Shown: positions 4,629 to 40,147 of the stretch, in pieces
Layout: every line of letters begins with the position of its first letter
Position numbering within the stretch: the first letter of the stretch is position 1
Assembly: GCA_963979435.1 (NCBI GenBank)
Contig: CAXBVE010000004.1
Span: 1 to 63,312, forward strand
Direction of reading: 5' to 3'
Length of the DNA stretch: 63,312 bases
Source of the DNA: an uncultured Candidatus Actinomarinales bacterium
Lineage (GTDB): Bacteria > Actinomycetota > Acidimicrobiia > Actinomarinales > Actinomarinaceae
Position numbers and translations under genes: made by a program
Notes under the pieces: model-generated
The model's database searches: none
Told to the model about the DNA's origin: nothing
The model's input: the letters and a program-made list of their open reading frames with translations, nothing else

Positions 4629-4966
4629 GTTTCTTTAAGATTCAATTCACTAAGTGCTACTGTAATTCTTCTTGAGCCCTGGTTTTGAGCACTTTTACAC
4701 AATTCTATAAAGCTTCTTAATTCACCGGTTCTAAATTTTTTAAGATCATCACCCGTTGAAATTGAACCACTTCTTTCTCTTTCAAGAAGTTTTATCTCTA
4801 TTTCTTTAGCTCTTGCTAAGTACGTACTACTAACTTCAAATAATGTGTCTATGCCATCTGAAATTGGTGGATTGATATGGCCCATTAGCACATCAATATA
4901 TTCGTTAATTTCTTCGTGTAGAGATTCAACACTTGATAAACCTTTTTTCAGTGGAAATTTTTGCAT
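4625..4966 (-). CDS. Hypothetical 113-aa protein
   Basis: Start overlaps the murJ stop (TAATG), stop overlaps the dnaX end; no family recognised. Confidence 0.7.
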   Translation of the reverse strand: MQKFPLKKGLSSVESLHEEINEYIDVLMGHINPPISDGIDTLFEVSSTYLARAKEIEIKLLERERSGSISTGDDLKKFRTGELRSFIELCKSAQNQGSRRITVALSELNLKET

Positions 4967-6462
4967 TAACGAGTCCTTTTCAGATTAATATATTTCATTT
5001 TAACGACAAGGAGAGACATCAATATAAGTAAAAAGATAAAAAATGTATCAAATATAAGCTCAAAAAATGGTCCACCAGAGTACAACCCAAAATTGATAAT
5101 TAAAAAATATCCCATTAAACCCACTAAAAATATTTTTAAGAAGTCCAATAATAGATTTCTATCAATAAGTCGATCATTTTTAATTTTAAGGAAAAAAGAT
5201 AAGATTAAAGTATTTACCCAAAGTGATGAAATAATGATTACTGCATAACTTTCCCCTGATGGATTGCTAAGTATTTTTAAAATAAGAATTGTAACAAGGG
5301 TAATAATTGTTCCAACCCAAACAGGGAACCAGTAATTTTTTTGCACATAGTAAGCTCTAGTGATAATTTGATTTAGAGACCATGGGATTAGTCCAAAGGC
5401 AACAAGCGTAAAAATTGATGATACTCTATTTGTATCTTCAGCAGAAAATAATCCGCGCTGATAAATAATCTCGATAATGTTTTCTGAGTTTGTTAAAAAA
5501 ATGATTAAAACAGCGGTATTAATTAGAGCTAAAGCTGATAACTGTTTCTTTATTAGCAACTTGAACTCATCTAATTTATTATCTACAAATAATTTTGATA
5601 AAGTAGGATAGCTAGCCACTCCAACAGCCTGTGCAATTACGCCTACAGGAATTAATGCCACTCTTCTTGCGTATCTAAAAGATGCTATTGATCCCGTTGA
5701 CAAGAGTGATCCAAAATATCTGAATAACTGTTCATCTACTACCGCAATGGACTGCCCAATGATTAATGGAAAAGAAATCTTTATGTACTGTGTAACATGT
5801 TCAATTTTTGGCCTTAAGGCTTTGAAGATAAGACCATTATTTTTTGCGCCCAATACTTGAAGAAAAAGATGTCCAATGATTGAACCAACTAGGCCTCCAA
5901 TAGCAAATCCATAAACTGTTGATTCAGGGGAGGTCGAGTAAAACCAACCAAACAAAATGATTGAAAGGTTATAAATAACTGGGGCTAGTGCTGCATACTT
6001 AAAATCATTTTTAAAATATTGGAATGACATTAAAATTGCACCAATAAAGAAAAAAGCCTGGCTAAAAACTATAGGTGTAAATAGTTTTATAAATAAATCT
6101 GGATTCTCAACATTCAATAAGCTTACAATTTGATATCTAAATAAGAAGAAAAGAAAAGAAATCGCAATAAATATCAATGATAATCCATAAAGAAGTGAGA
6201 CAAAGTAATCGTTAAGCTCAGATTCTTTATTTTTTGAGAGGTCACTGAGAATAGGTATTAAGGTAATGGCAAGATACCCACCTGCTGATAAATAAAATAA
6301 GAAATCAGGAATTATAAAAGCTAAATCTAAAGTATCTGAAGCACTAGTAACACCCGTCCACTGAGCAAGAAGAATTTCTCTAAAGAAACCTAGAATACGA
6401 CTCATTAAATAAGAAACTGTTATTAATGAAATTGAACCAAGGAGTTTTTTAGAGTTGTCCAT
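4966..6462 (-). CDS. murJ: Lipid II flippase MurJ
   Basis: SRILGFFRE, AFIIPD, YARRVALIPVGVIAQAV, QRGLF, multiple TM segments. Confidence 0.9.
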   Translation of the reverse strand: MDNSKKLLGSISLITVSYLMSRILGFFREILLAQWTGVTSASDTLDLAFIIPDFLFYLSAGGYLAITLIPILSDLSKNKESELNDYFVSLLYGLSLIFIAISFLFFLFRYQIVSLLNVENPDLFIKLFTPIVFSQAFFFIGAILMSFQYFKNDFKYAALAPVIYNLSIILFGWFYSTSPESTVYGFAIGGLVGSIIGHLFLQVLGAKNNGLIFKALRPKIEHVTQYIKISFPLIIGQSIAVVDEQLFRYFGSLLSTGSIASFRYARRVALIPVGVIAQAVGVASYPTLSKLFVDNKLDEFKLLIKKQLSALALINTAVLIIFLTNSENIIEIIYQRGLFSAEDTNRVSSIFTLVAFGLIPWSLNQIITRAYYVQKNYWFPVWVGTIITLVTILILKILSNPSGESYAVIIISSLWVNTLILSFFLKIKNDRLIDRNLLLDFLKIFLVGLMGYFLIINFGLYSGGPFFELIFDTFFIFLLILMSLLVVKMKYINLKRTR

Positions 6463-7327
6463 GTTTTTCCTTCATGTCATTTAAAAATTCATAAGGGACT
6501 TTAATTGGAGTGTTTTCATATCCATATCCCAAATTAATATTTGGTTTTATATCACCATGATAATCTGAGCCACCACATTCAAGTAGATTTAGTTTTTTTG
6601 CAACTTCAGAAATTTGATTGGTAACATTTTTGCTATAACTAGAGTAGGTCGCTTCTAAACCATTAATTCCAAACTCAGACAACTCTTTAACAAGTTCAAA
6701 AAAAGAGTCATTTATCCAGTTTTCTTTTTTTGAATACTTATCATTGCTCATCAATGTATGTGGATGAGCTAAAAACACTAAACATTTTGATTCCTGAGCA
6801 AGGTTAATTATTTTTTCAATATTAGGTTGATGAGATCGTGAATCTCCAATTTTTCCATTACCTAGATATTTTATAAAGGCCTCATTTATTGAACTAACAT
6901 GCCCTTTATCTTTTAGGATACTTGCGATATGAGGTCGTCCCGGAACTTGTGTTTTAAAGTTACTCAATTCAGATTTATTAATATCAAGACCTTCATTTTG
7001 TAAGTTCTCAATAATTTCATAGTTTCTAATATTTTTTAATATTCTTATTTCTTCCAAAAAACTATTTACCGGTGATTTCTCTTCAACAAAATATAAAAGT
7101 AAATGTATTCCAGCATAGGGATTAGATTTTTCTAACTTTTCCCAAGAAACGCTGACCTCGACTCCTTTAATGATTTCTATATTTTCACTTGTAGGCACAT
7201 TAGTAAGGTATTCATGATCTGTTATAGAGATAGCCTCAAGCTGTATCTCGATAGCTTTTTCGATGATACTTTCTGGACTATCTGTTCCATCAGAGTTCTC
7301 TGAATGTAAATGTAAGTCAATACTCAT
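6449..7327 (-). CDS. PHP-domain metal-dependent phosphoesterase (TrpH/RNase AM-like)
   Basis: DLHLHSENSDG, ITDHE, GRPHIA, LAHP, GGSDYHG. Confidence 0.88.
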   Translation of the reverse strand: MSIDLHLHSENSDGTDSPESIIEKAIEIQLEAISITDHEYLTNVPTSENIEIIKGVEVSVSWEKLEKSNPYAGIHLLLYFVEEKSPVNSFLEEIRILKNIRNYEIIENLQNEGLDINKSELSNFKTQVPGRPHIASILKDKGHVSSINEAFIKYLGNGKIGDSRSHQPNIEKIINLAQESKCLVFLAHPHTLMSNDKYSKKENWINDSFFELVKELSEFGINGLEATYSSYSKNVTNQISEVAKKLNLLECGGSDYHGDIKPNINLGYGYENTPIKVPYEFLNDMKEKHGQL

Positions 7328-7384
7328 TACAAACTAGAGTACTAGGTCTGTTATATCTTCAAATAGTTCATTAGAATGTTTCCA

Positions 7385-8593
7385 ATGAGTTTAATAGTTC
7401 AAAAGTATGGTGGAACAAGTGTAGCGAACCCCGATTCGCTTAAAATAGTTGCAGAAAAAATAATTAGTGCGAAAAAAGAGGGTAAACAAGTTGTAGTAGT
7501 AGTTTCTGCAATGGGTTCTAGTACAGATGAATTAATAGCCCTAGCTAATGAACTTTCGGAGACCCCTTCACCTCGTGAGATGGATATGCTACTTTCTGCT
7601 GGCGAAAGAATAACAATGTCACTACTCGCAATGCATTTAAATAGTCTTGGTTATGATTCCTACTCACTAACGGGTTCTCAAGCTGGAATTATCACAACTT
7701 CACGACACGGAAGAGCTGAAATCGAAAAAATTTCAGGTGAAAGAGTAAAAGAGGGTCTAGAGAAAGGAAGTATTGTTATCGTTGCTGGATTTCAGGGATT
7801 TAATCCAGACACTAGAGAGATAACAACCTTAGGTAGAGGAGGTTCTGATGCAACCGCAGTTGCTTTAGCAGCTTCCTTAGGAGCTGAAAAATGTGAGATA
7901 TATACAGATGTTGAGGGAGTATTTTCTGCAGATCCAAGAATTACTGATAAAGCAAAGCTATTAAAAGAAATAACTTATGATGAAATGCTTGAGATGGCCT
8001 CAACGGGTGCAAGAGTCTTAATGGCAAGGTCAGTTGAATTCGGCAGAAGGTATAATGTACCTATAATCGTGAGACCAACTTTTAGCGATGGTATGGGAAC
8101 AACAGTTAAGGAACAGGTAATGGAACAGGCAATTGTTAGTGGAGTAACCCACAACGACAAGGAAATAAAATTTACACTATTTGGTGTTCCAGATCAACCA
8201 GGTATTGCAGGAAGTGTTTTTGGTTACCTTTCTGATAAAGGTGTAAATGTCGACATGATTGTTCAAAACGTTTCTAAAGATTCAAAAACCGATATCAGCT
8301 TTACTGCCCCGGAGGAACAAAAAGACGAGGTTATGGACATACTTCTACATCTCAGTGAAGACCTAAAGGCTGAAGGTTCTGATAAAGATGAAAATATAGC
8401 AAGAGTTTCAATTATTGGTGCTGGTATGAAATCTGAATCTGGTGTGGCATCAAAAATGTTTAAGACACTAGGATCTAATGAAATAAATATAGGAATGATT
8501 TCGACTTCCCCAATAAGAATATCATGTGTAATTTCAAAAAATGATATGCAAAAAGCTATTGAAGTTCTACATGATGAATTTATCATAGATTAA
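7385..8593 (+). CDS. lysC: Aspartate kinase (alpha subunit)
   Basis: MSLIVQKYGGTSV, TTLGRGGSD, YTDVEGVFSADPR, two ACT domains. Start placed at 7385; the track starts at 7376. Confidence 0.95.
   Translation: MSLIVQKYGGTSVANPDSLKIVAEKIISAKKEGKQVVVVVSAMGSSTDELIALANELSETPSPREMDMLLSAGERITMSLLAMHLNSLGYDSYSLTGSQAGIITTSRHGRAEIEKISGERVKEGLEKGSIVIVAGFQGFNPDTREITTLGRGGSDATAVALAASLGAEKCEIYTDVEGVFSADPRITDKAKLLKEITYDEMLEMASTGARVLMARSVEFGRRYNVPIIVRPTFSDGMGTTVKEQVMEQAIVSGVTHNDKEIKFTLFGVPDQPGIAGSVFGYLSDKGVNVDMIVQNVSKDSKTDISFTAPEEQKDEVMDILLHLSEDLKAEGSDKDENIARVSIIGAGMKSESGVASKMFKTLGSNEINIGMISTSPIRISCVISKNDMQKAIEVLHDEFIID
8120..8593 (+). CDS. Probable aspartate kinase beta subunit from internal in-frame start
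   Basis: AAGGA at 8108-8112 before in-frame ATG 8120 (MEQAIVSGV), the position of the beta-subunit start in actinobacterial alpha2beta2 aspartokinases. Confidence 0.65.
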   Translation: MEQAIVSGVTHNDKEIKFTLFGVPDQPGIAGSVFGYLSDKGVNVDMIVQNVSKDSKTDISFTAPEEQKDEVMDILLHLSEDLKAEGSDKDENIARVSIIGAGMKSESGVASKMFKTLGSNEINIGMISTSPIRISCVISKNDMQKAIEVLHDEFIID

Positions 8594-9580
8594 ATGAAAA
8601 TAGCAATTGTAGGTGCGACTGGATTAGTCGGTAGAAATATTATTAAACAGTGTGAAAGACTTCTTCCTCAAGATATAGAGTTCCACTTATTTGCATCAAG
8701 TAAATCTGCAGGAGAAAAACTTACAGTTAACAATGAAGATTTAGTAATCAAAGAATTAAATTCTGAGAATATTGAAAAATATGACATTGCTTTATTTTCT
8801 GCTGGTGGGGAAAGGTCTAAAACTTTTGCCGAAAACTTTACATCCCAAGGAAGTTATGTAATTGATAATTCTTCTGCATTTCGGCTACACGAAGAAGTAC
8901 CACTTGTCGTTTATGGAATAAATCAAAATGAAATTACGTCAACTACCAAGTTAATTGCGAACCCAAACTGTACAACAATGGGGCTAGTAATGGCTTTAAA
9001 ACCCCTACATGATAAGTTTAGTTTGGTCAGCATGACGCCCGTTGCCTATCAAGCTGTATCTGGTTCTGGTTCTGAAGCTGTTGGTTCTTTAAGAAAAGAG
9101 GAATCTTTAGATGATAAATCTTTAGCAGAGTATAAAGATGGATATTATACAAGGCCAATAGCAAGAAACGTTATTCCTCTGGCTGGGAACCTATTAGACA
9201 ATGGATATTCTGATGAAGAGATGAAATTTGTTCATGAGTCAAAAAAAATATTAGGTATACCAGAACTAGTTGTTGAGCCATCAAATGCACGAGTAGGTGT
9301 TCTAACTGGTCATGGAGTCTTTTGTTCAGCAGTCTTTGAAAATGAAATTAACACAGATGAAGCAATACAAGAATTGAATAATTTTGAAGGAGTACAGTAT
9401 TGGTCGGAAACACTCGCAACACCTTTAGATGCTGAAAACAAGTATGATGTTCTAGTGTCAAGATTAAGAATGGGATTGTCTAGTTCAAAGATTATTAATT
9501 TTTGGTGTGTTTCGGATAATTTGTTAAAAGGTGCAGCACTAAATGCTGTTCAAATAGCTAAGCATCTGGTTCAGAAATGA
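8594..9580 (+). CDS. asd: Aspartate-semialdehyde dehydrogenase
   Basis: IAIVGATGLVG, IDNSSAFR, IANPNCTT, YQAVSGSG, DNLLKGAALNAVQIA. Confidence 0.95.
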   Translation: MKIAIVGATGLVGRNIIKQCERLLPQDIEFHLFASSKSAGEKLTVNNEDLVIKELNSENIEKYDIALFSAGGERSKTFAENFTSQGSYVIDNSSAFRLHEEVPLVVYGINQNEITSTTKLIANPNCTTMGLVMALKPLHDKFSLVSMTPVAYQAVSGSGSEAVGSLRKEESLDDKSLAEYKDGYYTRPIARNVIPLAGNLLDNGYSDEEMKFVHESKKILGIPELVVEPSNARVGVLTGHGVFCSAVFENEINTDEAIQELNNFEGVQYWSETLATPLDAENKYDVLVSRLRMGLSSSKIINFWCVSDNLLKGAALNAVQIAKHLVQK

Positions 9581-12771: not shown

Positions 12772-13628
12772 ACTTCTCCAGACTCATTATTTAAAAACTC
12801 TTCAATTTGTTGAACAAGGCTATCATCTGAATCGTCTGAAAAGGTATCTTCTAGAGTTAACTCTGCATCCTCGAGTTTTGCTACATATTCAGCAAGATCT
12901 TCTGAGTTTTCCATAGCTTTTTTAATTTTTGTTTCAAATTGTTGTCCCTCAGATTGGATTCCAGTATCATCAATATCTATTTTTAATATCTCAGCTGATT
13001 TATTTAACAAAGCGCTTATTCCTTTAGGGTAACCACCAGAACTTAGGTAGTGGGGAACAGCAGCCCATAGACCAGAAGTCTCAATTCCACTATTTCTCAA
13101 TTCATGCCCAACCACACTTGTTATACCAGTAGGACCTGAATAGTTAGTTGGTAAAACATTATATCTTGAGTTAAATGTAGGATCATCACTAACACCAAAA
13201 ATCGGTACGGGCAGGGTGTGAGCGACTTGACCAAAGAAGGCTCCAAGCGTGACTGCTTTTTTAACACCAAGCTCAATCAATGTGTTAGCAATATGCTCTG
13301 AGTAAGTTTTCCATCTCATTGAAGGCTCTTCTCCAAAAACTAATATGATGTCATTTGTTGACTTATAATCTTCAATTGAATAAAAAGATGTTTGGGGCCA
13401 ATGAAAATTTCTTTCCCCAATCTCTTTAACGTCGACAATGGGTCTTCTCATTTGATAATTATAAAAATTTTCAGAGTTCACTTCTGCAAATGGATCAACA
13501 TCATGGTTATTACAGAGATTTTCAATACATCCACTTGCGGTATTACCCGCATCACTCCAACCTTCAAAAGCTAGAACTGCTACAGGTTCAGATAAAAGTG
13601 GTTTCCTGTGCCAAATTATATCATCCAT
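12768..13628 (-). CDS. PAC2 family (proteasome assembly chaperone-like) protein
   Basis: AFEGWSDAG, RRP, GEEPSMRW, HTLP, YSGPTGI, WAAVPHY, QIEEFL. Confidence 0.88.
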   Translation of the reverse strand: MDDIIWHRKPLLSEPVAVLAFEGWSDAGNTASGCIENLCNNHDVDPFAEVNSENFYNYQMRRPIVDVKEIGERNFHWPQTSFYSIEDYKSTNDIILVFGEEPSMRWKTYSEHIANTLIELGVKKAVTLGAFFGQVAHTLPVPIFGVSDDPTFNSRYNVLPTNYSGPTGITSVVGHELRNSGIETSGLWAAVPHYLSSGGYPKGISALLNKSAEILKIDIDDTGIQSEGQQFETKIKKAMENSEDLAEYVAKLEDAELTLEDTFSDDSDDSLVQQIEEFLNNESGEV

Positions 13629-13665
13629 AATAAAAGGTTAATCAATGTGAAGATTTATCTCGAAA

Positions 13666-15729
13666 CTATTTAGTTAGTTTTCTTGAAGAATTCAAAACCA
13701 CTGAGATACTAGACATAGCCATAGCTAATGCCCCTAATTTAGGTGAGATGTTTCCATAAACAGCAATTGGAATCATGAGACTGTTATATATAAATGCTAA
13801 AAATAAATTTTGTCTAACTCTTTTGTCGCTAACTAAAGCAAGCTTTCTAATACTCAGAATTTTTTCGATTCCTCCATCGTGAATAACAATATCACTAGAT
13901 GCTTGAGCAATTTGGCTGCTTACCGAGGTTGTAATAGAAACATCTGCCTGCTGCAAGGAAGGGGAGTCATTAACTCCATCGCCTATAAAAATAACACCTT
14001 CGGTTTTCTGTATATTTTTTACAAAAGCAAGCTTATCCTCTGGAGTTTGGTTACCTAGAGCATTTTTAATCCCCAATTTTTCTGCCAATGTTGAAACTTT
14101 GTCTGAACCATCACCTGATAAAATTGAAATATCATAATAATCATCTACCTTATCAATCAATTTTCCATCAATATTCAAATCCTCTTGTAGGTGAATATAA
14201 GCTTGTGCATCATCAATAGTTACTTCAAGAATATTCTCTAAATCTTTCTTCCTAAAGATAGAAACGGTAAGGTCATTTACTAATCCCTCAATACCCGATC
14301 CAATAATCTCTTTTACATTTTTTGAAGAGTACAAAGATAAGCTTCTTTTCTCAGCCTCTAGAAGTAAGCTTTTTGCAACAGGATGATTGGATTTAATTTC
14401 CAAGCTGGCTACATATGATAAAACTTCGTCTTCACTTAAACTTGAATTTCCAAGGTCTATTTTTTCTATATTAAAAATACCAGAAGTAAGAGTGCCTGTT
14501 TTATCAAATATAACTTTATTTATCTTTTTTAGGTTCTGTAATTTATCAAAATTCTTAAAGATAAAACCATCTTTATATCCCAATGTTGAAGCTCTATATA
14601 ACACTATAGGTGTGGCTAAACCCAGAGCACATGGACATGCAATTACTAGAACTGAGATTGCAATTTCAAGAGATCTTATTAATTCAGTACTCAGAATAAA
14701 ATATCTATACATAAATGTGGTAAAACTTAATATGAGTATTCCTGGAACAAAAAATTGGGTCACCTTATCTAGAGTTTTTTGAATAGAGGGGGTAGTTGAT
14801 TGTGCTTCGAGGATAAGTTTCTCTATAAAATCATAAGTCGAAGCTCCTTCACTCTTAACCTCAATTTCTAAGTAACCATCTAAGTTGATACTTCCAGCTA
14901 ATACGCTGTCACCAATATTTTTATTTATTGGTTTCGACTCACCGGTTAGAAAGTCCTCGTTAGTTGATGATGAACCAGAGATTATGACTCCATCAATTGG
15001 AATGATTTCACCTGGAGAAACACCGATAAGATCACCACCTGATAGATCTGAAACTAGCATTACTTCAATATTTCCACTAGTTAACAATTTAGCATTGTGA
15101 GGTCTTGAATTTTTTATTGCTTCAGAGACATCTATAGAGCTTTGAATTGATATCTCTTCGAATGCCTTTCCAAATAATACAAATGAAATTATATAAGCTC
15201 CAGCATCAAGGAACATATCACTGTTACTAGACGGCAAAAGAGAGACTGCAACTGAACTTAAGCTACCAAGCGAAATGAGTGTATCCATATTAAATTCAAA
15301 GTGTGATATCTTTTTGGCCGCTGAAATATGAAAACGCCTTCCAAATACAAATATAACCAAGAAGCCTAAGATATATGCCCTTAATGAATTATCTGTATTA
15401 AACGCTTGAGAGATACCTGCAGAAAAAACTAAAGATAGGAATGGAAGCCAAAAAATATTTCCACTACTTCTTTTGACTTCTTCTTTATCAGTAGCGACTG
15501 TGGCAGAGTAACCTATAGAGCTAATCTTCTTGATTAATACATCAATGTTAAGGTTTTTTTGATATTTGATGACTGCTTTTTTTAAAGGAAAATTAACAGA
15601 TACTGACTCGATAGATTCATTTTTAGAAATAACCCTCTCAATTCTTGCCGCACAAGCAGCACAGGTCATTCCTTCAAGGTCGAGGGTTACAGTTTCGTTA
15701 ACCTTGGACAACAGTGTAGCCTTGTTCAT
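13666..15729 (-). CDS. copA: Copper-translocating P1B-type ATPase
   Basis: GMTCAAC, TGES, CPCALGLATP, DKTGT, HP, GDGVND, YN and MAMSS. True start may be TTG at 15711. Confidence 0.92.
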   Translation of the reverse strand: MNKATLLSKVNETVTLDLEGMTCAACAARIERVISKNESIESVSVNFPLKKAVIKYQKNLNIDVLIKKISSIGYSATVATDKEEVKRSSGNIFWLPFLSLVFSAGISQAFNTDNSLRAYILGFLVIFVFGRRFHISAAKKISHFEFNMDTLISLGSLSSVAVSLLPSSNSDMFLDAGAYIISFVLFGKAFEEISIQSSIDVSEAIKNSRPHNAKLLTSGNIEVMLVSDLSGGDLIGVSPGEIIPIDGVIISGSSSTNEDFLTGESKPINKNIGDSVLAGSINLDGYLEIEVKSEGASTYDFIEKLILEAQSTTPSIQKTLDKVTQFFVPGILILSFTTFMYRYFILSTELIRSLEIAISVLVIACPCALGLATPIVLYRASTLGYKDGFIFKNFDKLQNLKKINKVIFDKTGTLTSGIFNIEKIDLGNSSLSEDEVLSYVASLEIKSNHPVAKSLLLEAEKRSLSLYSSKNVKEIIGSGIEGLVNDLTVSIFRKKDLENILEVTIDDAQAYIHLQEDLNIDGKLIDKVDDYYDISILSGDGSDKVSTLAEKLGIKNALGNQTPEDKLAFVKNIQKTEGVIFIGDGVNDSPSLQQADVSITTSVSSQIAQASSDIVIHDGGIEKILSIRKLALVSDKRVRQNLFLAFIYNSLMIPIAVYGNISPKLGALAMAMSSISVVLNSSRKLTK

Positions 15730-15901
15730 CGAGTAAGGATTCTACATCTGTCATTTCTACACCATCAGAGATATTTAAAGAAACAGCTTTAGTGTCTACA
15801 TCAACATTTACATTTGATACACCAGGTGTGTTTAACGTTTTCTCTATAGTCTCTTTACAGTGCCCACAGGTTATTTCTGGAACAGTAAAATTTATATCCA
15901 T
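15698..15901 (-). CDS. copZ: Copper chaperone (HMA domain)
   Basis: ITCGHC, C-terminal GY, directly upstream of copA; TAAAAT 6 nt before ATG. Confidence 0.88.
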   Translation of the reverse strand: MDINFTVPEITCGHCKETIEKTLNTPGVSNVNVDVDTKAVSLNISDGVEMTDVESLLDEQGYTVVQG

Positions 15902-15961
15902 AGGAGTATTTTAGTGTATATTTTTTTTTAGATTTAGACGATATGTCTAACTCTTAATTAA

Positions 15962-16156
15962 TTAAGCAGTTTCTTGTAAAATGCGGCCTCTTACACGAGG
16001 ATACTTAACAGGAGCGTGATTAAAACAATGATCTCTTTTGTTGTAGATACTTAATTTAGTGCTACATGATTCATCTTTACATACTCTGCCCTGGTCAAAA
16101 CTTTTTGAAGGCCTTATTCCGCCTTTAATTTGACTTGCTTTTAGTCCGTCAGTCAT
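15962..16156 (-). CDS. Small putative zinc-finger protein (C-x4-C-x12-C-x2-H), paralog 1
   Basis: AAGGA Shine-Dalgarno; 32/57 ungapped identities with ORF 39781-39984. Confidence 0.85.
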   Translation of the reverse strand: MTDGLKASQIKGGIRPSKSFDQGRVCKDESCSTKLSIYNKRDHCFNHAPVKYPRVRGRILQETA

Positions 16157-16172
16157 TTGATTCCTTTTTAGT

Positions 16173-16190
16173 TTGTGAATATATTCACAA
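16173..16190. promoter_or_regulatory. Perfect palindrome TTGTGAA-TATA-TTCACAA (Rex-box consensus; also fits CRP-type TGTGA-N6-TCACA)
   Basis: Exact 18-bp palindrome 16 nt upstream of the microprotein start. Confidence 0.75.
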
Positions 16191-16226
16191 GGGTAACAAC
16201 TTTACCCACAGGATGCAAGCTTTTCT

Positions 16227-18128
16227 TCAAGATTTACCTAATTTTTTTTGTTTCAAAAAAGCCTCGTCATTCCACTCTCTTCCTAGAAAGTCTTGAACCA
16301 TTTCTTCTGCATCTTTAGAACCACCAACCGAGAGAATTTTATTCTTATAGTCAATGCCAACCTCTTTTGATAAGATACCTTCATTTTCAAATCTACTAAA
16401 TAAATCATCACCAATTATGTCGGCCCACAAGTAACCGTAATAGGCCGCATCGTATCCTCCAAGTAAGTGTCCGAAAGCTCCAAGGTGATTAGTATCGTCA
16501 GGATAATTTATTGTTGTTACCTTTTGAGACTCTTGTTCAATTTGATCTAACGAATCATCAAAATTTATTCCATGTAAGTGTTGATCAGCTAGCCCAAATG
16601 ATACTTGACGAAGAGTTAGTAAGCTGATTCCTATATTTTTTGAAGAATTCAACCTCTCACAAAGATCGTGGGCTAGTGTTTCTCCAGTTTCAATATGTTT
16701 CGAAAATCTTCTCAAGCATTCACTCTTCCATACCCAGTGTTCCATGATTTGACTTGGTGCTTCAACAAAATCCCACTCAACATTTGCCCCTAAAAACCGA
16801 GCAAACTTTGACTTCCCAATTCCGTTATGAAGGACATGGCCAAATTCATGAAAAAGTGTTTCCACCTCATCAAAAGTCATGAGGCCATTACCAGTATTTG
16901 GATTTGGGAAGTTAGCAACCATTGAACAAACTGGAAGATTTGTTTCATCTGCACTACCTGGTGAAATATCAAAAACTGCTGCATGGGTGTATTTTCCATC
17001 TCTTGGGTACATATCTAAATAAAAATATGCAGTTTTTTTGTTATTGTGATCTGAGATCGACCAAAGTTCAACATCCTCATGCCAAGCTGTGCGAGAGTCT
17101 TCCCGATTAATAGAGATTTCAAAAACATCTTCACATATTGAGAACATGGCCTCTTTTACATTATGGATATAGAAATACTTTTTTATTTCATTATTATCAA
17201 CCTGACTCTGTTCATTTCTTTTTTTTGTAATAAAATACCTAATATCCCAAGGAGCTATATCTGAAGGTTCAATATTGTCAGTTGCTAGCTCAACTTTTTC
17301 ATTTTGTGCGGCCGTTTGTAATTTAGGAACTAAATTGTCATACATTTTTACAACATTTTGTGGACTTTTAGCCATTCTGTGTTGAAGCCTATATTCTCCC
17401 CAGGTGTTGAAACCAAATAGGTTTGCTTTTTCATTTCTCAAAGCAACCGCTTCTTTTAAAATAGGCGAATTTGATAATACTGCTCTATTATTAAATGCCT
17501 TCCACACTTTTTTTCTTGAATCACGAATCTCACAATTCTCTAAAACTGCATTTATATCAGGGTAAGCCATTGTCACAATGAAGTTTCCTTCTTCTTTTCT
17601 GAAATTATTCAGCTCATCAATGCTTAGACCCTTTAATTGAGATTGATTTAGTATTACCTCAGAATTATCGGCTGCAATATTTTTAGAGAAATTAATTTCA
17701 AGATCTATTAATTTTTTTTCTATTTCAATTAAGCGTGTTTTTTTATCATGATCTAATTCATGTCCAGCATCAATAAAGTCTCTAATAACCTCATCAAAGT
17801 ATTTGATAGACTCCTTATCTAAAGTATTTGTTTTGATTGATTTGAATTTTTCATAAAGTTTTTTATCTGTTGTAACCTCCAAAATAAAATTTTCAATAAT
17901 TGATTCCGCAACGTTACCATAATTTCTAATATCTTCTTCTTTGCTTACATCTGCCATGAAAGCTACTCTTCCAGACAAATCTGAAAGTGTTCTCTCAAAT
18001 AAATCAAACATATCTAGAGATGGTGTATCTTCATTTTTAATCTTCTGAATTTGTTCAAGACCTATGTTTAGAGTATTTTTTATATCATTTTCTAAATCTA
18101 ATTTTGTTATTGCTGAATAATCAAACAT
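16227..18128 (-). CDS. M3 family oligopeptidase (thimet/oligopeptidase A-like)
   Basis: FHEFGH, DFVEAPSQ, YLDMYPRDGKY, GYDAAYYGYLW, FLGR. Confidence 0.92.
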   Translation of the reverse strand: MFDYSAITKLDLENDIKNTLNIGLEQIQKIKNEDTPSLDMFDLFERTLSDLSGRVAFMADVSKEEDIRNYGNVAESIIENFILEVTTDKKLYEKFKSIKTNTLDKESIKYFDEVIRDFIDAGHELDHDKKTRLIEIEKKLIDLEINFSKNIAADNSEVILNQSQLKGLSIDELNNFRKEEGNFIVTMAYPDINAVLENCEIRDSRKKVWKAFNNRAVLSNSPILKEAVALRNEKANLFGFNTWGEYRLQHRMAKSPQNVVKMYDNLVPKLQTAAQNEKVELATDNIEPSDIAPWDIRYFITKKRNEQSQVDNNEIKKYFYIHNVKEAMFSICEDVFEISINREDSRTAWHEDVELWSISDHNNKKTAYFYLDMYPRDGKYTHAAVFDISPGSADETNLPVCSMVANFPNPNTGNGLMTFDEVETLFHEFGHVLHNGIGKSKFARFLGANVEWDFVEAPSQIMEHWVWKSECLRRFSKHIETGETLAHDLCERLNSSKNIGISLLTLRQVSFGLADQHLHGINFDDSLDQIEQESQKVTTINYPDDTNHLGAFGHLLGGYDAAYYGYLWADIIGDDLFSRFENEGILSKEVGIDYKNKILSVGGSKDAEEMVQDFLGREWNDEAFLKQKKLGKS

Positions 18129-18166
18129 TTATCTCCTTTTAAGTTTTTTATGATAGTATTTCTAAT

Positions 18167-18403
18167 ATGGATATCAAACTTGAATTTTGTGTAGTTTGAA
18201 ACTACACACCTCGTGCAGTTAGTACGATAGAAGACATTTTAGAAAAATACGGACAAAAAGTTAATTCAATAAATCTAATTCCCGGATCAGGTGGCGTCTT
18301 TGAATTTTATTTGAATGAAGAATTACTTTACTCAAAACTTGAAACTGGAAGACACACTGAAGAAGGAGAGATTCTAAATCTCATAGAAAAAGCACTTAGT
18401 TGA
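18167..18403 (+). CDS. SelW/SelT/SelH (Rdx family) selenoprotein, CxxU; not in ORF track
   Basis: MDIKLEFCVV(U)NYTPRAV...LIPGSGGVFEF...LLYSKLETGRH... (78 aa) with in-frame TGA at 18197-18199 completing CxxU; extended -10 TGaTAGTAT 7 nt before ATG. Confidence 0.9.
18202..18230 (+). other. Candidate SECIS hairpin of the Rdx selenoprotein
   Basis: TCGTGC-AGTTA-GTACGA stem-loop (18211-18227; loop starts at +18 from UGA with G then U) plus CTA/TAG lower pairs; folded by eye. Confidence 0.5.
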
Positions 18404-19134
18404 ACATTCCTTTCGATCTTTCAATTTTTGAACTAATTTTTATAGCACTTCTATTATTTATTTCTGCGTCTGTCCAAGGGGTCCTAGGATTTGGTTTCGC
18501 AGTCATTGCATCACCAATTATTGTTCAAATAGAACCTGCCTTAGTTCCTCAGCTGCTTTCTCTTTTGGGCCTTCCTTTAGCTTTAAGGGTCTTTATTAGA
18601 GAAAAATCTAAAGTTAACTGGAAACCTATGAAGTTTCTTATTGGTGGAAGAGTTATAGGTGGCCCAATTGGTTTGGTATTCTTAACAACCTTAGACCCTC
18701 ACTTATTATCGATTTCTGTGGGGGTAATAGTATTAAGTGCTGGACTCGGTTCATATTTTGGTTGGAATGTAAAAAGAAACTCTATCAACTCATTGCTTGC
18801 AGGTACTTTTTCAGGGATATTTGGGATGATTGCTGCAATTGGAGGCCCACCTGTCGCTATTTTATACAGAGGAACCAAGGGAAGTGAATTTAGACCATCT
18901 CTAAATGCTGTATTTACCTTAGGTATACTAATCACCCTTTCTCTGTTGGCTTTTACTGGAAATTTGCTACAAGACCACCTAGTTTTATTTCTCTACCTTG
19001 TTTTACCAGTTTTACTTGGGATAAGGTTTTCAAGCCTACTATTTTCCAGAGTATCGGATAAACTTATCGCCGATATGGTAACTTATTTTTCTATATTTTC
19101 AGGAGCAGTCGTGATCTATAGGGCATTATTTTAA
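18400..19134 (+). CDS. Sulfite exporter TauE/SafE family protein
   Basis: VQGVLGFGFAVIASP, GTFSGIFG, IGGPP; TTG start overlaps the selenoprotein stop (TTGA). Confidence 0.85.
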   Translation: MNIPFDLSIFELIFIALLLFISASVQGVLGFGFAVIASPIIVQIEPALVPQLLSLLGLPLALRVFIREKSKVNWKPMKFLIGGRVIGGPIGLVFLTTLDPHLLSISVGVIVLSAGLGSYFGWNVKRNSINSLLAGTFSGIFGMIAAIGGPPVAILYRGTKGSEFRPSLNAVFTLGILITLSLLAFTGNLLQDHLVLFLYLVLPVLLGIRFSSLLFSRVSDKLIADMVTYFSIFSGAVVIYRALF

Positions 19135-35952: not shown

Positions 35953-36342
35953 TTATATATTTTTCTTTATTGACTTGTTTGTTTCTTTAACAATTTCATT
36001 CTTGTAGCTTTGGTGAATATCTTTTTCATTTCTTGAATATTGAATTTTTTCTTGGCTCAATTCATCCTGCAACAAAACAATAGTTTCTTGCAACTCTTCA
36101 ATTTTATCTCTCATTTCATAAATTATTTTTATTCCGTCCAGATTGATTCCTCTTTGAGATAAATCCTGTATCTGAATTAGTTTATCTATATCACTTTGAG
36201 AATATCTTCTAGTTCCTCCACCTGTTCTGTATGGCTTGATGAGACCTTTTTCTTCATAACTTCTTATGGTTTGTTGATGTATGCCAGAAAGTGTAGAAGC
36301 TACAGAGATAAAATAAATCGCAGTAGAACTCTCTCTATTCAT
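35953..36342 (-). CDS. hspR: Heat-shock repressor HspR (MerR family)
   Basis: YFISVAS..GIHQQTIRSYE.KGLIKPYRTGGGTRRYS, located after dnaJ. Start placed at ATG 36342 overlapping the dnaJ end. Confidence 0.9.
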   Translation of the reverse strand: MNRESSTAIYFISVASTLSGIHQQTIRSYEEKGLIKPYRTGGGTRRYSQSDIDKLIQIQDLSQRGINLDGIKIIYEMRDKIEELQETIVLLQDELSQEKIQYSRNEKDIHQSYKNEIVKETNKSIKKNI

Positions 36343-37414
36343 ATAAATAATCTCTAGGGGTATCTCCAGATTCAAACTGATCCCTGAAGCTTTCCAAATG
36401 TTTTTTTGCTGACCTAGAAAGATTCTGTGGAGGATTTAAATAAACTTTTACATACAGGTCTCCAGATCTTCTCCCCTGAGGGGTTATCCCTTCACCCTTA
36501 ACTTTAAAAGTTTTACCGCTTGGTGTTCCTGAAGGAATTTTTAGTGATATTTGTTTTTCAAGTGTTGGAATTTTAATTGTTGCACCCAATGCAGCTTCTG
36601 TGAAAAGAAGAGGAACTTCCAATACTAGGTCACTACCGCTTCTTTTAAAGTATTGATGTGGCTCAACAGCTATTTGGACAAGTAAGTCTCCATCAGGTGC
36701 CCCATTGTCACCTGTACCCCCATACCCTCGGAGTCTGATAACCGTTCCATTGTCTACACCAGCAGGAATCTTTACCTTGATTGTTTCACTCTTGATTACA
36801 ACTCCTTGTGCTTTACAGGTCTTACACTGCTTGTCTATAACACTTCCTTGACCTCTACATGCTTGGCATGGTTGTGCAAAAGAGAAGAAACCTTGATTTG
36901 AAGCAGTTTGACCTGAGCCTCCACAAATATTACATGTATGGTATGCATTTCCATTTTCCGAACCATTCCCTCTGCAGTCTGAACATGAAACCTCTTTCCT
37001 TAATGGAACATTTGTTTCTAAACCTGAGGCAGATTCTACAAATGAAATAGTTAAATTAGTTTGGTAGCTCTGACCCTTCCTTCTTCCAGCTCCACCAAAA
37101 CCAAAAATATCTCCTAAATTACCAAATATATCTCCAAGATCTTCTGCATTAAATCCACCACCTTGACCACTAAAAGCAGATGGCCCCATGGCTCTTACTT
37201 GATCATATTCTTGTCGCTTTTTATCATCAGCAAGAACAGAACTAGCTTCGGATATATCTTTAAATCTTTTCTCAGCTTCTGGATCACCTGGATTAAGGTC
37301 CGGATGATTTTCCCTAGCAAGTTTTTTGTAGTTTTTCTTTATTTCATCTATTGATGCATTTTGAGACACACCAAGGACTTTATAAAAATCTTTTTCTAAC
37401 CAGTCCCTATTCAC
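36335..37414 (-). CDS. dnaJ: Chaperone DnaJ
   Basis: HPD J-domain, G/F region, four CxxC zinc-finger repeats. Confidence 0.96.
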   Translation of the reverse strand: MNRDWLEKDFYKVLGVSQNASIDEIKKNYKKLARENHPDLNPGDPEAEKRFKDISEASSVLADDKKRQEYDQVRAMGPSAFSGQGGGFNAEDLGDIFGNLGDIFGFGGAGRRKGQSYQTNLTISFVESASGLETNVPLRKEVSCSDCRGNGSENGNAYHTCNICGGSGQTASNQGFFSFAQPCQACRGQGSVIDKQCKTCKAQGVVIKSETIKVKIPAGVDNGTVIRLRGYGGTGDNGAPDGDLLVQIAVEPHQYFKRSGSDLVLEVPLLFTEAALGATIKIPTLEKQISLKIPSGTPSGKTFKVKGEGITPQGRRSGDLYVKVYLNPPQNLSRSAKKHLESFRDQFESGDTPRDYLYE

Positions 37415-37937
37415 TATGGACTTTTACCATAGCCGGTCGTAGTAATCGACCGTCTATTTCATAACCTTTTCTGAGGACTTCTCCAACCAATTCTTTATCA
37501 CCCTCACCTGATTGCTCAACAGCTTCATGATAGGAAGGGTCAAAAGGTTCCCCAATGCCAGGTACTTCTTTTACATTGAATGTATCTAGAAAGACTTGAG
37601 TCATTTTATAAAGAGCTTCTATTTCCGTTGGAGTGCCATCTTGGTTCATTGCAATCTCAAAATTATCTATTAGAGGTAGCAGTGTAGAGATGATCATTGA
37701 AAGAGAAGTAACAGTACTCATACTTTTTTCTTTTTCAGCTCTTTTTTTGAAATTCTCAAAGTCTGCTGCAAGTCTTAAGTAATCATCCTTAATTTTCTCA
37801 TACTGCTCAAGGGGAACTGAATGAGCTTCTTCATTATCGGAAGTCTCTTCAGGAACCTCTTCAGAAGTCTCTATATCTTCAGGAACCTCTTCAGAAGTCT
37901 CTATATCTTCAGGATCAGTACTTTCATTTTTATTCAT
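37407..37937 (-). CDS. grpE: Nucleotide exchange factor GrpE
   Basis: [40 protein letters not shown]. Start placed at 37937; the track starts at 37949. Confidence 0.95.
37846..37914. repeat. 30-bp tandem repeat (about 2.3 copies) in the grpE N-terminus
   Basis: TCTTCAGGAACCTCTTCAGAAGTCTCTATA repeated exactly; encodes [10 protein letters not shown] twice. Confidence 0.9.
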
Positions 37938-39747
37938 CTTCTTCCACAACTTCGCCGTCTACAACATCTTCACTTTCTGCATCATCAAAAGATGTGTTTT
38001 CTGCTTCTTGTTGGGCTTCAGCATATAGCTTCTCTGCGAATGATTGACTTGCTTTGGTTAGTTCCTCAATAGAATTTTTGATTTCATCGAGAGTGGCTTC
38101 ATCATTCTCAAGCACCTTAGAAAGTGCATCTTTTCCATCTGTCATAGCTGTAACTTCTTCTTCAGTAGCTTTATCTTTATTTTCTTCAAGCATTTTTTCA
38201 GTAGAAGTAACCATACCTTCAGCTAAATTCCTAGTTTCAATAAGTTCTTTCTTTTGAGCGTCTTCATTTGCATGAGTCTCAGCATCCTTGATCATTCTTT
38301 CTATTTCATCGTCCTCAAGGGCAGTTCCACCAGTGATAGTAATGTTCTGCTCTTTGCCGGTACCAAGGTCTTTTGCATTCACATTAACAATTCCATTTGC
38401 ATCAATATCAAATGTAACTTCAATTTGAGGAGTACCCTGTTTAGCAGACGGTATCTCAGTTAATTTAAATTTACCCAATGATTTATTACCTGAAGCCATC
38501 TCCCTTTCGCCTTGAAGAACATGGATTTCAACTTCTGTTTGACCATCTTCAGCTGTAGTAAACGTTTCAGATCTCTTAGTAGGAATAGTTGTATTCCTCT
38601 CAATCATCTTTGCAACGATTCCACCTTTAGTCTCAACTCCGAGGGTCAATGGAGTAACATCAAGAAGTAACACATCTTTTACATCACCTTTTAATACTCC
38701 AGCTTGAATAGCTGCCCCAGATGCGACAACTTCATCAGGATTAACTCCTTTGTGAGGATCTTTTCCAGTCATAGTTTTAACTAGAGCTTGGATTGAAGGT
38801 ATTCTTGTTGATCCACCAACTAAAATAATATGATCAATATCTGAAAATGAAAGACCTGCATCATCAATAGCTTTATTTACTGGTTCTTTTGTTCTATCAA
38901 CTAAATCAGAAGTAATTTTTTCAAATTCACTTCTAGATAACTTTTCTAGTAAATGCTGGGGGCCAGCATCATTTGCAGTAATGAATGGTAAATTGATTTC
39001 TGTCTCGCTAGTTGAGGAAAGTTCAATTTTTGCTTTCTCAGCACCCTCTTTTATTCTTTGCATAGCCATCTTGTCATTTGAGATATCAATACCAGTTGAT
39101 GATTTAAACTTTTCAACCAACCAGTCCATTACTTTCTCATCCCAATCATCCCCGCCAAGTTTAGAATCACCAGCTGTTGACTTAACTTCGAAAACACCTT
39201 CTGAAATTTCTAATACTGACACATCAAATGTTCCACCACCTAGGTCATAAACTAATATTTTCTGATCTTCGCTATTTTCTAAACCATAAGCTAAAGATGC
39301 AGCAGTAGGTTCATTGATAATTCTTAATACATTTAGGCCTGCTATTTTCCCAGCCTCTTTTGTAGCCTGACGTTCAGCATCATTAAAATATGCTGGAACA
39401 GTAATTACAGCTTCGGTTACATCTTCACCAAGATATGCTTCTGCATCTCGCTTTAGTTTCTGTAAAATTCTTGCTGATATTTCTTGGGGCGTATAATCAC
39501 TACCTTCAAATTTTTGCTTCCAGGTAGTTCCTATCTCTCTTTTAATTGATCTTATAGTGTTATCAGGATTTGTTATTGCCTGCCTTTTAGCAAGTTCACC
39601 AACAAGAACTTCTTCACCTTTAAAAGCTACTATTGATGGTGTAGTTCTATTTCCTTCTGCATTTGCGACTACGGCGGGTTCTCCACCTTCTAATACTGCA
39701 ACTACACTATTGGTTGTTCCTAGGTCAATTCCTACTGCTTTTCCCAT
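37930..39747 (-). CDS. dnaK: Chaperone DnaK
   Basis: [35 protein letters not shown]. Confidence 0.98.
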
Positions 39748-39780: not shown

Positions 39781-39984
39781 TTAAATGTTTGGTTCTTGAT
39801 CTCTTGATAAATGTCCTCTAACCCTTGGATAGGAGACTGGTGAATGCAAGAAACAATACTTTTTCTTGTTGTAAATGCTTATTTGAGTCTCACAAGACGA
39901 AAACTCACAAACGCGACCAGATGTATATTTTTTTGATCGTCTAACTCCAGGTTTTACTGAAGAAGCTGTTAATGTACTACTCAT
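39781..39984 (-). CDS. Small putative zinc-finger protein (C-x4-C-x12-C-x2-H), paralog 2
   Basis: AAGGA Shine-Dalgarno; 33 nt upstream of dnaK on the same strand; paralog of 15962-16156. Confidence 0.85.
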   Translation of the reverse strand: MSSTLTASSVKPGVRRSKKYTSGRVCEFSSCETQISIYNKKKYCFLHSPVSYPRVRGHLSRDQEPNI

Positions 39985-40020: not shown

Positions 40021-40044
40021 AATCTAAGTATATACACTTAGATT
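40021..40044. promoter_or_regulatory. Inverted repeat AATCTAAGT-N6-ACTTAGATT; candidate HspR (HAIR-like) operator
   Basis: Perfect 9-bp arms enclosing a minus-strand TATACT -10. Loosely resembles HAIR (CTTGAGT-N7-ACTCAAG) but the spacer is 6 nt. Confidence 0.5.
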
Positions 40045-40147
40045 TATATAAAATATAATATAGTTATAAAATTATGCAAACTTTTCATTAATTTTTTCTA
40101 TAAATCATAGTGATATACATTTCTTCTAATAGTGATAATATTAAATA

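Follow-up and report, generated by a model that had tools for sequence, protein, structure and literature searches.

Why would a free-living marine bacterium with a genome of about 1 Mb, among the smallest, retain two copies of a gene for a protein of about 65 residues, and what does the protein do? The question is raised by the window examined here, the whole stretch of 63,312 nucleotides (nt) of contig CAXBVE010000004.1 from an uncultured Candidatus Actinomarinales bacterium. One copy, the open reading frame (ORF) designated ORF1, lies directly upstream of the copper genes copZ and copA, and the other, ORF2, heads the operon of the chaperone gene dnaK. Both are real genes under purifying selection, and they belong to a family whose link to stress and redox control is real. 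Judged from its sequences, the family is most aptly regarded as a new group, still without a name, of small, putatively zinc-binding stress-regulon proteins, and it shows none of the features that define the SBP, Ruc, Wbl, RbpA, ZAS or CsoR proteins. We regard the chances as evenly balanced that the best explanation of the observations is a stress-regulon family that binds a zinc ion and acts by binding nucleic acid or the transcription machinery.

The two genes and their family

The two genes and the ribosome-binding site of the first are as follows.

15962..16156, minus strand: ORF1 (copy 1), a putative 64-residue Cys3His zinc-knuckle protein (ORF listing, purifying selection, family searches)
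39781..39984, minus strand: ORF2 (copy 2), a putative 67-residue Cys3His zinc-knuckle protein, first cistron of the dnaK operon (ORF listing, BLASTP against ORF1, presence in the genus)
16162..16166, minus strand: Shine-Dalgarno sequence AAGGA of ORF1 (read from the sequence; AAGGA or GGGGA is kept in the genus)

Aligned by BLASTP, ORF1 and ORF2 are identical at 32 of 59 positions and similar at 43 of 59, without gaps (E 3e-25). A sequence-only reading of this DNA had given the gap-free identity as 32/57 and had also claimed for both proteins the motif GRVC-x4-C-x-T-x-[LI]SIYNK-x3-CF-x-H-x-PV-x-YPRVRG, a Shine-Dalgarno sequence for each gene and a palindrome upstream of each. The motif is present as claimed, the Shine-Dalgarno sequence is AAGGA 5-6 nt before the ATG in both cases (39994-39990 for ORF2), and the palindromes lie at 16190-16173 for ORF1 and at 40044-40021 for ORF2. 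That reading had further proposed that the family was undescribed, and this too stands, as neither ORF1 nor ORF2 has a match in Pfam or NCBIfam at E<=10, the PHROGs database contains no match for the family, and no description of it was found in the literature, as judged from listings and the opening lines of abstracts.

Selection acts on both genes. Comparison of 22 copy-1 orthologues within the genus (231 pairs) gave 4570 synonymous and 767 non-synonymous codon differences, and the corresponding figures for copy 2 are 1166 and 382 (52 equal-length pairs, also from the genus). The host assembly (989,695 bases in 59 contigs, 92% complete) contains exactly two copies of the family, and 23 of the 24 other genomes of the genus contain the family as well, usually in two matches separated by about 22 kb; the sole genome without a match is 87% complete. 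In a quick tree the dnaK-linked copy, on a long branch, is sister to the cop-linked copy of Actinomarina (SH-aLRT 92), and both are nested in the cop-linked clade of the Acidimicrobiia (SH-aLRT 88). This sister placement inside the cop-linked clade fits a lineage-specific duplication, which we adopt provisionally as the probable origin of the two copies.

The family extends far beyond the genus. In an exhaustive profile search 1140 clusters (50% identity) passed a threshold of E<=1e-3, and 136 passed E<=1e-10; the 150 top-ranked clusters all have lengths of 47-133 residues. A word-based search recovered 44 close relatives. Across 39 aligned, diverse members R24, C26, C31, Y38, C44, H47 and G57 are invariant, so that the four presumed ligands (C26, C31, C44 and H47) are kept throughout, and S36, N39 and R56 are nearly so. 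The core of the family reads R-x-C-x4-C-x-T-x-L-S-x-Y-N-x4-C-x2-H followed by P-R-x-R-G, and the tail after the PRVRG motif comprises about 5-15 residues that vary between members. The proteins are roughly 60-70 residues long and strongly basic, with a median pI of 10.2 and a median net charge of +8 over the 39 members, and the ligand pattern suggests that each probably binds one zinc ion.

None of the 42 relatives scanned against Pfam reached a cut-off. The sub-threshold matches that recur are CxC6 (best 21.3 bits against a cut-off of 27.5), EsV_1_7_cys, Zf_WRKY19 and zf-CGNR, and the likeness of the family to the cysteine motifs of EsV-1-7, CxC6 and WRKY19 proteins is known through these scores only. 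Membership in established families of small metal-thiolate proteins was examined in the same manner. Whib, characterised by its own model and a four-Cys Fe-S motif, has no Pfam match for ORF1 or ORF2 at E<=10 or for the 42 relatives. The ZAS proteins (RsrA, TIGR03988) have no NCBIfam match, their H-x3-C-x2-C motif is absent, and RsrA is itself encoded by a separate gene upstream of some members. CsoR (PF02583) has no Pfam match, and the CsoR of the relatives is likewise a separate gene.

Longer forms of the protein were considered as well. The long frames around homologues in high-GC genomes (up to 726 residues) are artefacts of stop-free reading frames, and the real genes there encode roughly 60-90 residues. 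A search for longer relatives returned three proteins. P0188 looks like an N-terminal over-extension and P0189 like a HisKA fragment run into the gene, and both were set aside. P0190 (198 residues) alone may be a true fusion, and its C-terminal helix-turn-helix (HTH) segment is sub-threshold (HTH_26, 20.5 bits against a cut-off of 22 bits). Few fusions were found in this search, and a blank there is weak evidence.

The distribution of the family was determined in an even draw of 301 genomes of the Actinomycetota, whose taxonomic families are given as codes. The family was matched in 85 of the 301, with one to seven matches per genome, and is concentrated in certain groups (f16, 19/20; f21, 21/21; f29, 16/16; f2, 3/3), while others yielded no match (f22, 0/12; f23, 0/10; f28, 0/20; f27, 0/9; f7, 0/8). 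These tallies include nine unpublished genomes (G152, G041, G270, G085, G057, G205, G257, G179 and G123), seven of which are in f16, and no locus was taken from any of them. The best 80 named loci consist of 57 from Ca. Actinomarina/OCS155 and 23 from Acidimicrobiia metagenome-assembled genomes (54-68% identical); these loci were found with closer alignment and are biased towards Actinomarina and the Acidimicrobiia.

Viruses carry the family too. Homologues of 54-66 residues that keep the zinc core and lack the PRVRG tail are encoded on 36 IMG/VR viral contigs, and the ESM Atlas holds an unnamed cluster that is 75% viral. As a separate observation, marine phage contigs (L236, L258 and similar, at about 3900-8600; GC 32-35%) carry a common module in the order endolysin, exonuclease, (holin), the family gene, a divergent gene without assignment, an HTH/excisionase-like gene, a replication initiator and HNH.

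Control of the genes and their neighbourhoods

The region upstream of ORF1 contains three elements.

16173..16190, either strand: predicted Rex operator TTGTGAATATATTCACAA, overlapping the ORF1 transcript start region (consensus match, conservation in the genus, presence of a Rex gene)
16190..16218, minus strand: putative sigma-70-type promoter of ORF1, TTGCAT (16218-16213), 17-nt spacer, TACCCT (16195-16190) (from the sequence)
16191..16207, either strand: palindrome GGGTAA-N5-TTACCC in the promoter spacer (unique in the genome, not conserved in the genus)

Operators of Rex, a sensor of NADH/NAD+, follow the consensus TTGTGAA-W4-TTCACAA (PMC2883068), and TTGTGAATATATTCACAA (16190-16173) is an exact match to it. 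Five perfect TGTGA-N6-TCACA sites occur in the genome, all of the extended Rex form and all intergenic, where a rough estimate from base composition predicts about one by chance. The ORF1 operator is located 29-41 nt before the start codon in 80 of 80 copy-1 loci of Actinomarina (78 directly and 2 recovered; these loci come from two sets that may overlap) and in none of the 23 Acidimicrobiia loci from outside the genus. The genome also encodes a protein of Rex architecture (Put_DNA-bind_N and CoA_binding; contig C2:8070-8714) at 1.4 kb from nuoA-like genes, and one of the Rex sites lies 14 nt before those nuoA-like genes. The likeness to the Rex regulon, in the exact operator, in a Rex gene encoded by the genome and in the site before nuoA, concerns the control of ORF1 and not its protein. 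A small zinc-knuckle gene beside copZA was not found among the Rex targets in literature listings.

The hexamers of the putative ORF1 promoter are kept in kind across the genus, TTGC(A/C)(T/A) and TA(A/C)(G/C)CT with a spacer of 16 or 17, and the Rex operator abuts them; a simple consensus scan did not list this promoter. The palindrome GGGTAA-N5-TTACCC was considered as an operator and rejected; this genome contains it only once, but the genus does not keep it. Apart from ORF1, the four further perfect TTGTGAA-N4-TTCACAA sites (C2:10149-10164, C3:51820-51835, C8:823-838 and C20:8678-8693, all intergenic) precede the nuoA-like genes, a rhodopsin-like gene of 221 codons (at a distance of 59 nt), a WhiB-like gene of 94 codons and a 157-codon gene without assignment. 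Taken together, the sites sketch a Rex regulon of modest size in this streamlined actinobacterium of the sea.

Copy 2 belongs to a chaperone operon and is preceded by a palindrome of another kind.

35953..39747, minus strand: dnaK (37930-39747), grpE (37407-37949), dnaJ (36335-37414) and an hspR-like MerR gene (35953-36375) (ORF listings)
40021..40044, either strand: palindrome AATCTAAGT-N6-ACTTAGATT, a probable HspR operator (no other perfect copy in the genome; conserved in the genus)
40052..40080, minus strand: promoter-like TTTGCA-17-TATATT just upstream of the palindrome (consensus scan; conserved in the genus)

In 21 of 21 loci of the genus ORF2 opens the operon ORF2-dnaK-grpE-dnaJ-hspR, and on the coding strand 33 nt separate it from dnaK. 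The hspR-like gene has a MerR_1 match of 60.8 bits. The arms of the palindrome (TCTAAGT and ACTTAGA) are kept in all 21 loci, and its 6-nt spacer is free. The operon resembles the HspR-controlled dnaK operons of actinobacteria in its gene order and in the inverted repeat at its promoter. The repeat AATCTAAGT-N6-ACTTAGATT is not an exact match to the HspR-associated inverted repeat (HAIR), the consensus of which is CTTGAGT-N7-ACTCAAG (PMC6102357), and the operon differs further in its extra cistron, ORF2. When up to 3 mismatches were allowed, none of the 25 HAIR hits listed, out of 45, fell in the ORF2 upstream region. Among related Acidimicrobiia, four of five have a HAIR-like site (2-4 mismatches) 70-92 nt before dnaK, and no gene is present upstream of dnaK within 330 nt in any of the five. 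Based on the position of the palindrome, at the promoter of an operon whose last gene is hspR, and on the HAIR-like sites before dnaK in the relatives, the ORF2 palindrome is probably a diverged HspR operator, and ORF2 probably an inserted first cistron.

One Acidimicrobiia relative (L299, G039:C32) has a GC-rich palindrome of a third form, TATACCC-CCTG-GGGTATA, some 151 nt ahead of dnaK. TACCC...GGGTA is a type associated with operators of the CsoR family, and the palindrome of this relative has that form.

In relatives outside the genus the family gene is associated with thiol-oxidative control. In 21 of 23 Acidimicrobiia loci the pattern GGAAN-N16-19-GTTG is found some 100 nt ahead of the start codon (for example GGGAACA-N16-CGTTGAA, with the spacer sequence free), compared with 0.9% of the 160-nt windows drawn at random from these loci (4000 windows). 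The SigH/SigR promoter consensus is GGGAA(C/T)-N16-19-(C/G)GTTG (PMC3489674), and the Acidimicrobiia copies are thus predicted to sit behind a promoter of the SigH/SigR type. Inspection of the Actinomarina sequences by eye did not reveal the pattern upstream of their copies.

Neighbourhoods in the wider phylum were examined in 80 fetched loci, of which the flanking ORFs of 72 were scanned with Pfam; the scan omitted L158, L159, L164 and L177, which follow the enoyl-CoA hydratase/PabB pattern by ORF sizes, and four cop-linked loci. In 18 of the 72 the family gene is directly preceded, in the same orientation, by a gene for an extracytoplasmic function (ECF) sigma factor, usually with an ORF of 76-110 residues in between. 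SigH_actino (TIGR02947) is the best match of the sigma factor in 14 of 14 tested, 12 of them above the cut-off, and RsrA (TIGR03988) is matched by 11 of 12 small ORFs tested beside the sigma gene, 7 of them above the cut-off; 10 of these 12 lie between the sigma and family genes, and no sigma ORF was called at the locus of one (L166). The family gene often comes third, behind sigH and rsrA, in several lineages of Actinomycetota outside the Acidimicrobiia. Three other loci (L130, L153 and L191) have a neighbouring gene for a sigma factor that comprises regions 2-3-4.

Additional contexts recur. In f16 the family gene is followed by an ORF of 88-124 residues, a Zincin_2 gene and tilS, with divergent genes for MgtE and PhoU-TrkA_C proteins. 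In f29, mainly, it follows genes for an enoyl-CoA hydratase and (GNAT) and is convergent with a PabB-like gene. In f21 it lies divergently between guaB-like and guaA genes (5 loci). A PIG-L deacetylase gene follows it in 4 loci, and a nickel superoxide dismutase gene adjoins in 6. In the quick tree these context groups cluster, requiring 14 changes compared with a shuffled mean of 63. A tblastn search of the 80 phylum loci with DnaK, GrpE, CopA, CopZ, the peptidase, PAC2 and CsoR found cop genes in 5 and DnaK or GrpE in none. The conserved 88-124-residue ORF that is always present between the family gene and Zincin_2 (L121-L128, L132 and L133 at about 3490-3920; L119:3670-3936) has no Pfam or NCBIfam match and is a possible partner.

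The Actinomarina genome has two genes of the sigma-70 family only. Its sole ECF sigma factor scores 76.5 bits where the SigH_actino cut-off is 251.55, and neither an RsrA nor a SigH orthologue was found in the 92%-complete assembly. This ECF gene (L194, C2, 1402-2354) lies between rpmG and secE and precedes an ORF of 123 codons whose product combines an H-x3-C-x2-C motif with a hydrophobic segment at the C-terminus and looks like a membrane-anchored, ZAS-like anti-sigma factor. Among the Acidimicrobiia, primary sigma factors 80-85% identical to that of the window occur only in the families that bear the gene (f2, f10, f12 and f15), and the best matches in the other families sampled are about 50% identical (L275-L282 against L283-L296), a pattern that suggests two deep groups in the class.

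The genes around copy 1 are as follows.

15698..15901, minus strand: copZ, HMA copper chaperone (ORF listing; orthologues found by tblastn match Pfam HMA)
13666..15729, minus strand: copA, P-type copper ATPase (ORF listing; orthologues match E1-E2_ATPase, Hydrolase and HMA)
16227..18128, minus strand: M3 oligopeptidase, the conserved upstream neighbour (ORF listing; Peptidase_M3 upstream in 11 of 13 Acidimicrobiia loci)
15902..15961, minus strand: spacer of 60 nt between ORF1 and copZ, with no terminator-like hairpin on the coding strand (terminator scan; bridged by contigs from RNA libraries)

A scan of 43 flanking ORFs at 13 loci gave the gene order in Acidimicrobiia outside Actinomarina, namely M3 peptidase (11/13), family gene, CsoR, CopZ, CopA and PAC2. 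The csoR gene lies between the family gene and copZ in L101, L104, L108 and L112, and the family gene is inverted and divergent from csoR-copZ-copA in L113 and L118. In L107, which has no cop genes, and in L102, which retains a decayed copA fragment only, it is kept between the peptidase and PAC2 genes. With csoR in between, the gene inverted and the gene kept where the cop genes have been lost, the copper neighbourhood is mostly inherited, old synteny that comes with a repressor of its own, and not an operon partnership. CsoR (PF02583) was not found in the 92%-complete Actinomarina genome despite the presence of copZ-copA. The csoR of the relatives occupies exactly the place where ORF1 now abuts copZ.

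Public sequencing runs provide a view of expression. The region 15600-16300 is contained in 20 runs from 12 studies, chosen because the stretch is present, and 9 of the runs are recorded as RNA; Logan contigs of four RNA libraries were mapped on 13000-19000. Two of the libraries, X11 and X6, which come from two studies, show a deep contig over ORF1. In library X11 a contig at 15957-16179 with a mean word depth of 117.7 spans ORF1 together with its leader and has its start within the Rex operator, and the depths elsewhere are 34.6 at the ORF1-copZ junction, 9.1 in copA and 9.0 in the peptidase gene. In library X6 a contig at 15759-16224 (depth 72.3, neighbours 3-10) bridges ORF1 and copZ, and bridging contigs are also present in libraries X2 and X3. 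Contig depth cannot rank genes and RNA libraries may contain DNA, and the contigs are read here as a weak hint that ORF1 is transcribed, probably well above its neighbours, with read-through to copZ possible.

These results bear on what the sequence-only reading had inferred from the setting of the two genes. Its suggestion that each copy is wired to a different repressor is borne out by the sites themselves, since ORF1 sits behind a Rex operator and ORF2 behind a distinct, HspR-type palindrome. It had named random neighbourhoods among homologues as a refutation, and the neighbourhoods are in fact non-random and stress-themed. The idea that both copies stand 5' of a stress module is correct for this genome, where copZ-copA and dnaK follow, but neither link extends to the family as a whole. 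The dnaK link was found in Actinomarina only, 0 of 80 phylum loci having dnaK nearby, and the copper link fails as a family trait on the evidence of the relatives given above. Its proposal that the proteins may themselves be metal- or redox-sensing regulators that bind nucleic acid or RNA polymerase stands as a conjecture. Its caution that co-transcription of ORF1 and copZ was unproven still applies, as the bridging contigs establish nothing firmer.

Candidate functions of the protein

The reading that we prefer, offered tentatively and a little short of an even chance, is that of a zinc-binding protein that acts on nucleic acid, or on DNA together with the transcription machinery, through its basic N- and C-terminal arms. 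Redox or heat stress would lift the control exerted by Rex, HspR or RsrA, and the protein would be made. Its basic arms would then bind nucleic acid, or DNA with the transcription machinery, and the protein would serve as a small regulator or protector. The zinc-thiolate site may be purely structural or may also be a switch that responds to thiol oxidation. In Actinomarina, where no SigH orthologue, RsrA or CsoR was found, the sites show the two copies rewired to a Rex operator and a probable HspR operator.

Several observations lend this proposal weak support. These are the basic charge, the sub-threshold matches to the CxC6, EsV-1-7 and WRKY19 cysteine motifs, the sub-threshold HTH of the possible fusion P0190, and the presence of up to 7 matches per genome in a small number of recurring contexts. 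The phage homologues adjoin HTH/excisionase-like and replication-initiator genes, and the best sequence match in the PDB is to the first zinc site of a plant SBP domain, which binds DNA (SPL5; E 0.12, 15.1 bits), a match that includes the basic residues after the tyrosine. The SBP domain comprises a C-x4-C-x16-C-x2-H site followed by a C2HC site. The family has the same order of ligands, R-x-C-x4-C ... C-x2-H, together with L-S/T and with a tyrosine and basic residues before the third cysteine. It differs in having a spacer of 12 and not 16, in having no second zinc site and in being a stand-alone bacterial or phage protein of about 65 residues. The SPL5 match at E 0.12 and the lack of any Pfam SBP match place the family outside the SBP proteins, and the alignment of 39 members contains a single site with no further Cys/His cluster.

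Several points weigh against the proposal of nucleic-acid binding. Homology to DNA- or RNA-binding domains did not reach significance in any case, the SBP match included. No common DNA motif that the protein itself could bind was found near members of the family, the upstream palindromes being explained by Rex and HspR. The binding of zinc is predicted from the ligand pattern only, and the apparent RNA level of ORF1 fits a chaperone-like or ribosome-associated protein as well or better. The relatives are not independent: a small number of families supplies many of the loci, and some Actinomarina loci may be present in both of their sets. An AlphaFold2 model built with the family alignment is mostly coil with one beta-hairpin (pLDDT 78.9, pTM 0.41). 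A Foldseek search of the PDB returned nothing at E<=1e-3 and only RBR/IBR zinc domains at E 4.7-8.3 (probability <=0.02), and VIA-align returned nothing at Z>=2 among 48,161 chains, although blank structure searches say little when the model is mostly coil.

The alternative that survives best, which we nevertheless consider unlikely, is a redox-activated holdase or co-chaperone of DnaK in the manner of Ruc or Hsp33, in which oxidation would release the zinc and bare the arms, and these would hold unfolded clients for DnaK-DnaJ-GrpE. In PMC7448276, Ruc (Rv0991c of M. tuberculosis) is described as a small zinc protein that is co-regulated with chaperones and binds DnaK, with an N-terminal zinc site of four cysteines and a long disordered C-terminus. 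The family resembles Ruc in being a small, putative zinc-thiolate protein encoded with heat and oxidative genes, since its members occur in SigH/RsrA thiol-oxidative and heat regulons and ORF2 heads the dnaK operon throughout the genus; the apparently high abundance of ORF1 RNA adds a weak point in favor. It differs from Ruc as described there in its Cys3His site, its spacing and its tails of about 5-15 residues, too short for a long disordered client-binding segment, and no sequence relation between the two was detected. Moreover, the protein is strongly basic and not amphipathic, DnaK or GrpE is encoded within 4 kb in none of the 80 phylum loci, and the phage copies are located in replication and regulation modules.

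We think it distinctly improbable that the protein is a factor of the Wbl or RbpA kind, one whose partner would be a sigma factor or RNA polymerase and not nucleic acid, and which would adjust transcription during redox stress. Like the Wbl proteins, as generally known, the family is small, Cys-rich, present in multiple paralogues, linked to redox and stress and borne by phages, and sigma genes of two kinds adjoin its members, SigH-type in 18 loci and those with regions 2-3-4 in three. RbpA of S. coelicolor is regulated by SigR and binds zinc. The ligand pattern differs, however, and neither Whib nor RbpA has a Pfam match. A relation to RbpA was considered from an N-terminal 'LRGSR' and the control by SigR, and was rejected, as hhalign with RbpA (PF13397) gave a probability of 0.2 with 5 columns aligned. 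In addition, Actinomarina keeps two copies though a SigH-RsrA pair was not found. A prediction of the complex of the primary sigma factor (residues 50-351) with ORF1 and zinc scored 0.00 in two runs, in which no controls were folded, and weighs on neither side. Among the 301 genomes, 43 match RbpA and 85 match the family, with f21 matching both and at least 173 matching neither, so that the two are not complementary. As an aside, 20 of the 21 f21 genomes (for example G141:C212:16286-16453) contain only a partial RbpA match, which spans the core domain (model positions of about 19-70) but not the part that interacts with sigma, together with 2-7 family matches.

A bolder version of the same idea also has, in our estimate, only a slim chance of being right. 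According to this version the family would be a second Wbl-like class of small metal-thiolate stress proteins in Actinomycetota and their phages, a direct effector of SigH-RsrA at DNA or RNA polymerase. Streamlining would have cost Actinomarina the sensor pair of that circuit, with its two copies then re-plugged into Rex and HspR.

The remaining alternatives are very improbable. A ribosome- or RNA-associated small zinc protein, acting as a stress accessory or hibernation-type factor, would share its size, charge, single knuckle and extended model with small zinc ribosomal proteins, a resemblance only, and would suit the apparent RNA level of ORF1, itself a weak point, but no ribosomal-protein family was matched in Pfam or NCBIfam, no ribosomal-protein genes surround the loci scanned, up to 7 matches occur per genome and the C-terminal tails differ. 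Nor is the protein at all likely to handle copper or zinc or to replace the missing CsoR, with copy 1 sensing or buffering metal and controlling copZ-copA, for although ORF1 lies directly 5' of copZ-copA in a genome where CsoR was not found, adjoins cop genes throughout the Acidimicrobiia loci examined and is bridged to copZ by RNA-library contigs, the synteny described above, the failure of tblastn to detect cop genes in 75 of the other 80 phylum loci, the recurring contexts unrelated to metals and promoters that are SigH-type or Rex-controlled and not metal-type all speak against it.

Meaning for the family and for Actinomarina

The family is very widespread and very conserved and has no name, with 1140 clusters, matches in 85 of 301 Actinomycetota genomes and homologues on 36 viral contigs. 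Those members that can be placed sit in the best-studied stress circuits of actinobacteria, namely SigH/RsrA, HspR-DnaK and Rex. A protein of 64 residues should be easy to express, titrate and solve.

For Actinomarina, the retention of two copies in a genome in which no SigH orthologue, RsrA or CsoR was found at 92% completeness argues for an important function. As both copies are kept without a SigH-RsrA pair, the target of the protein must be something universal. The Rex operator of copy 1 suggests an undescribed link between the sensing of NADH/NAD+ and a copper-export locus in an abundant marine bacterium. If the family were a second Wbl-like class, copy 1 would couple the redox state of the cell to copper export in place of CsoR.

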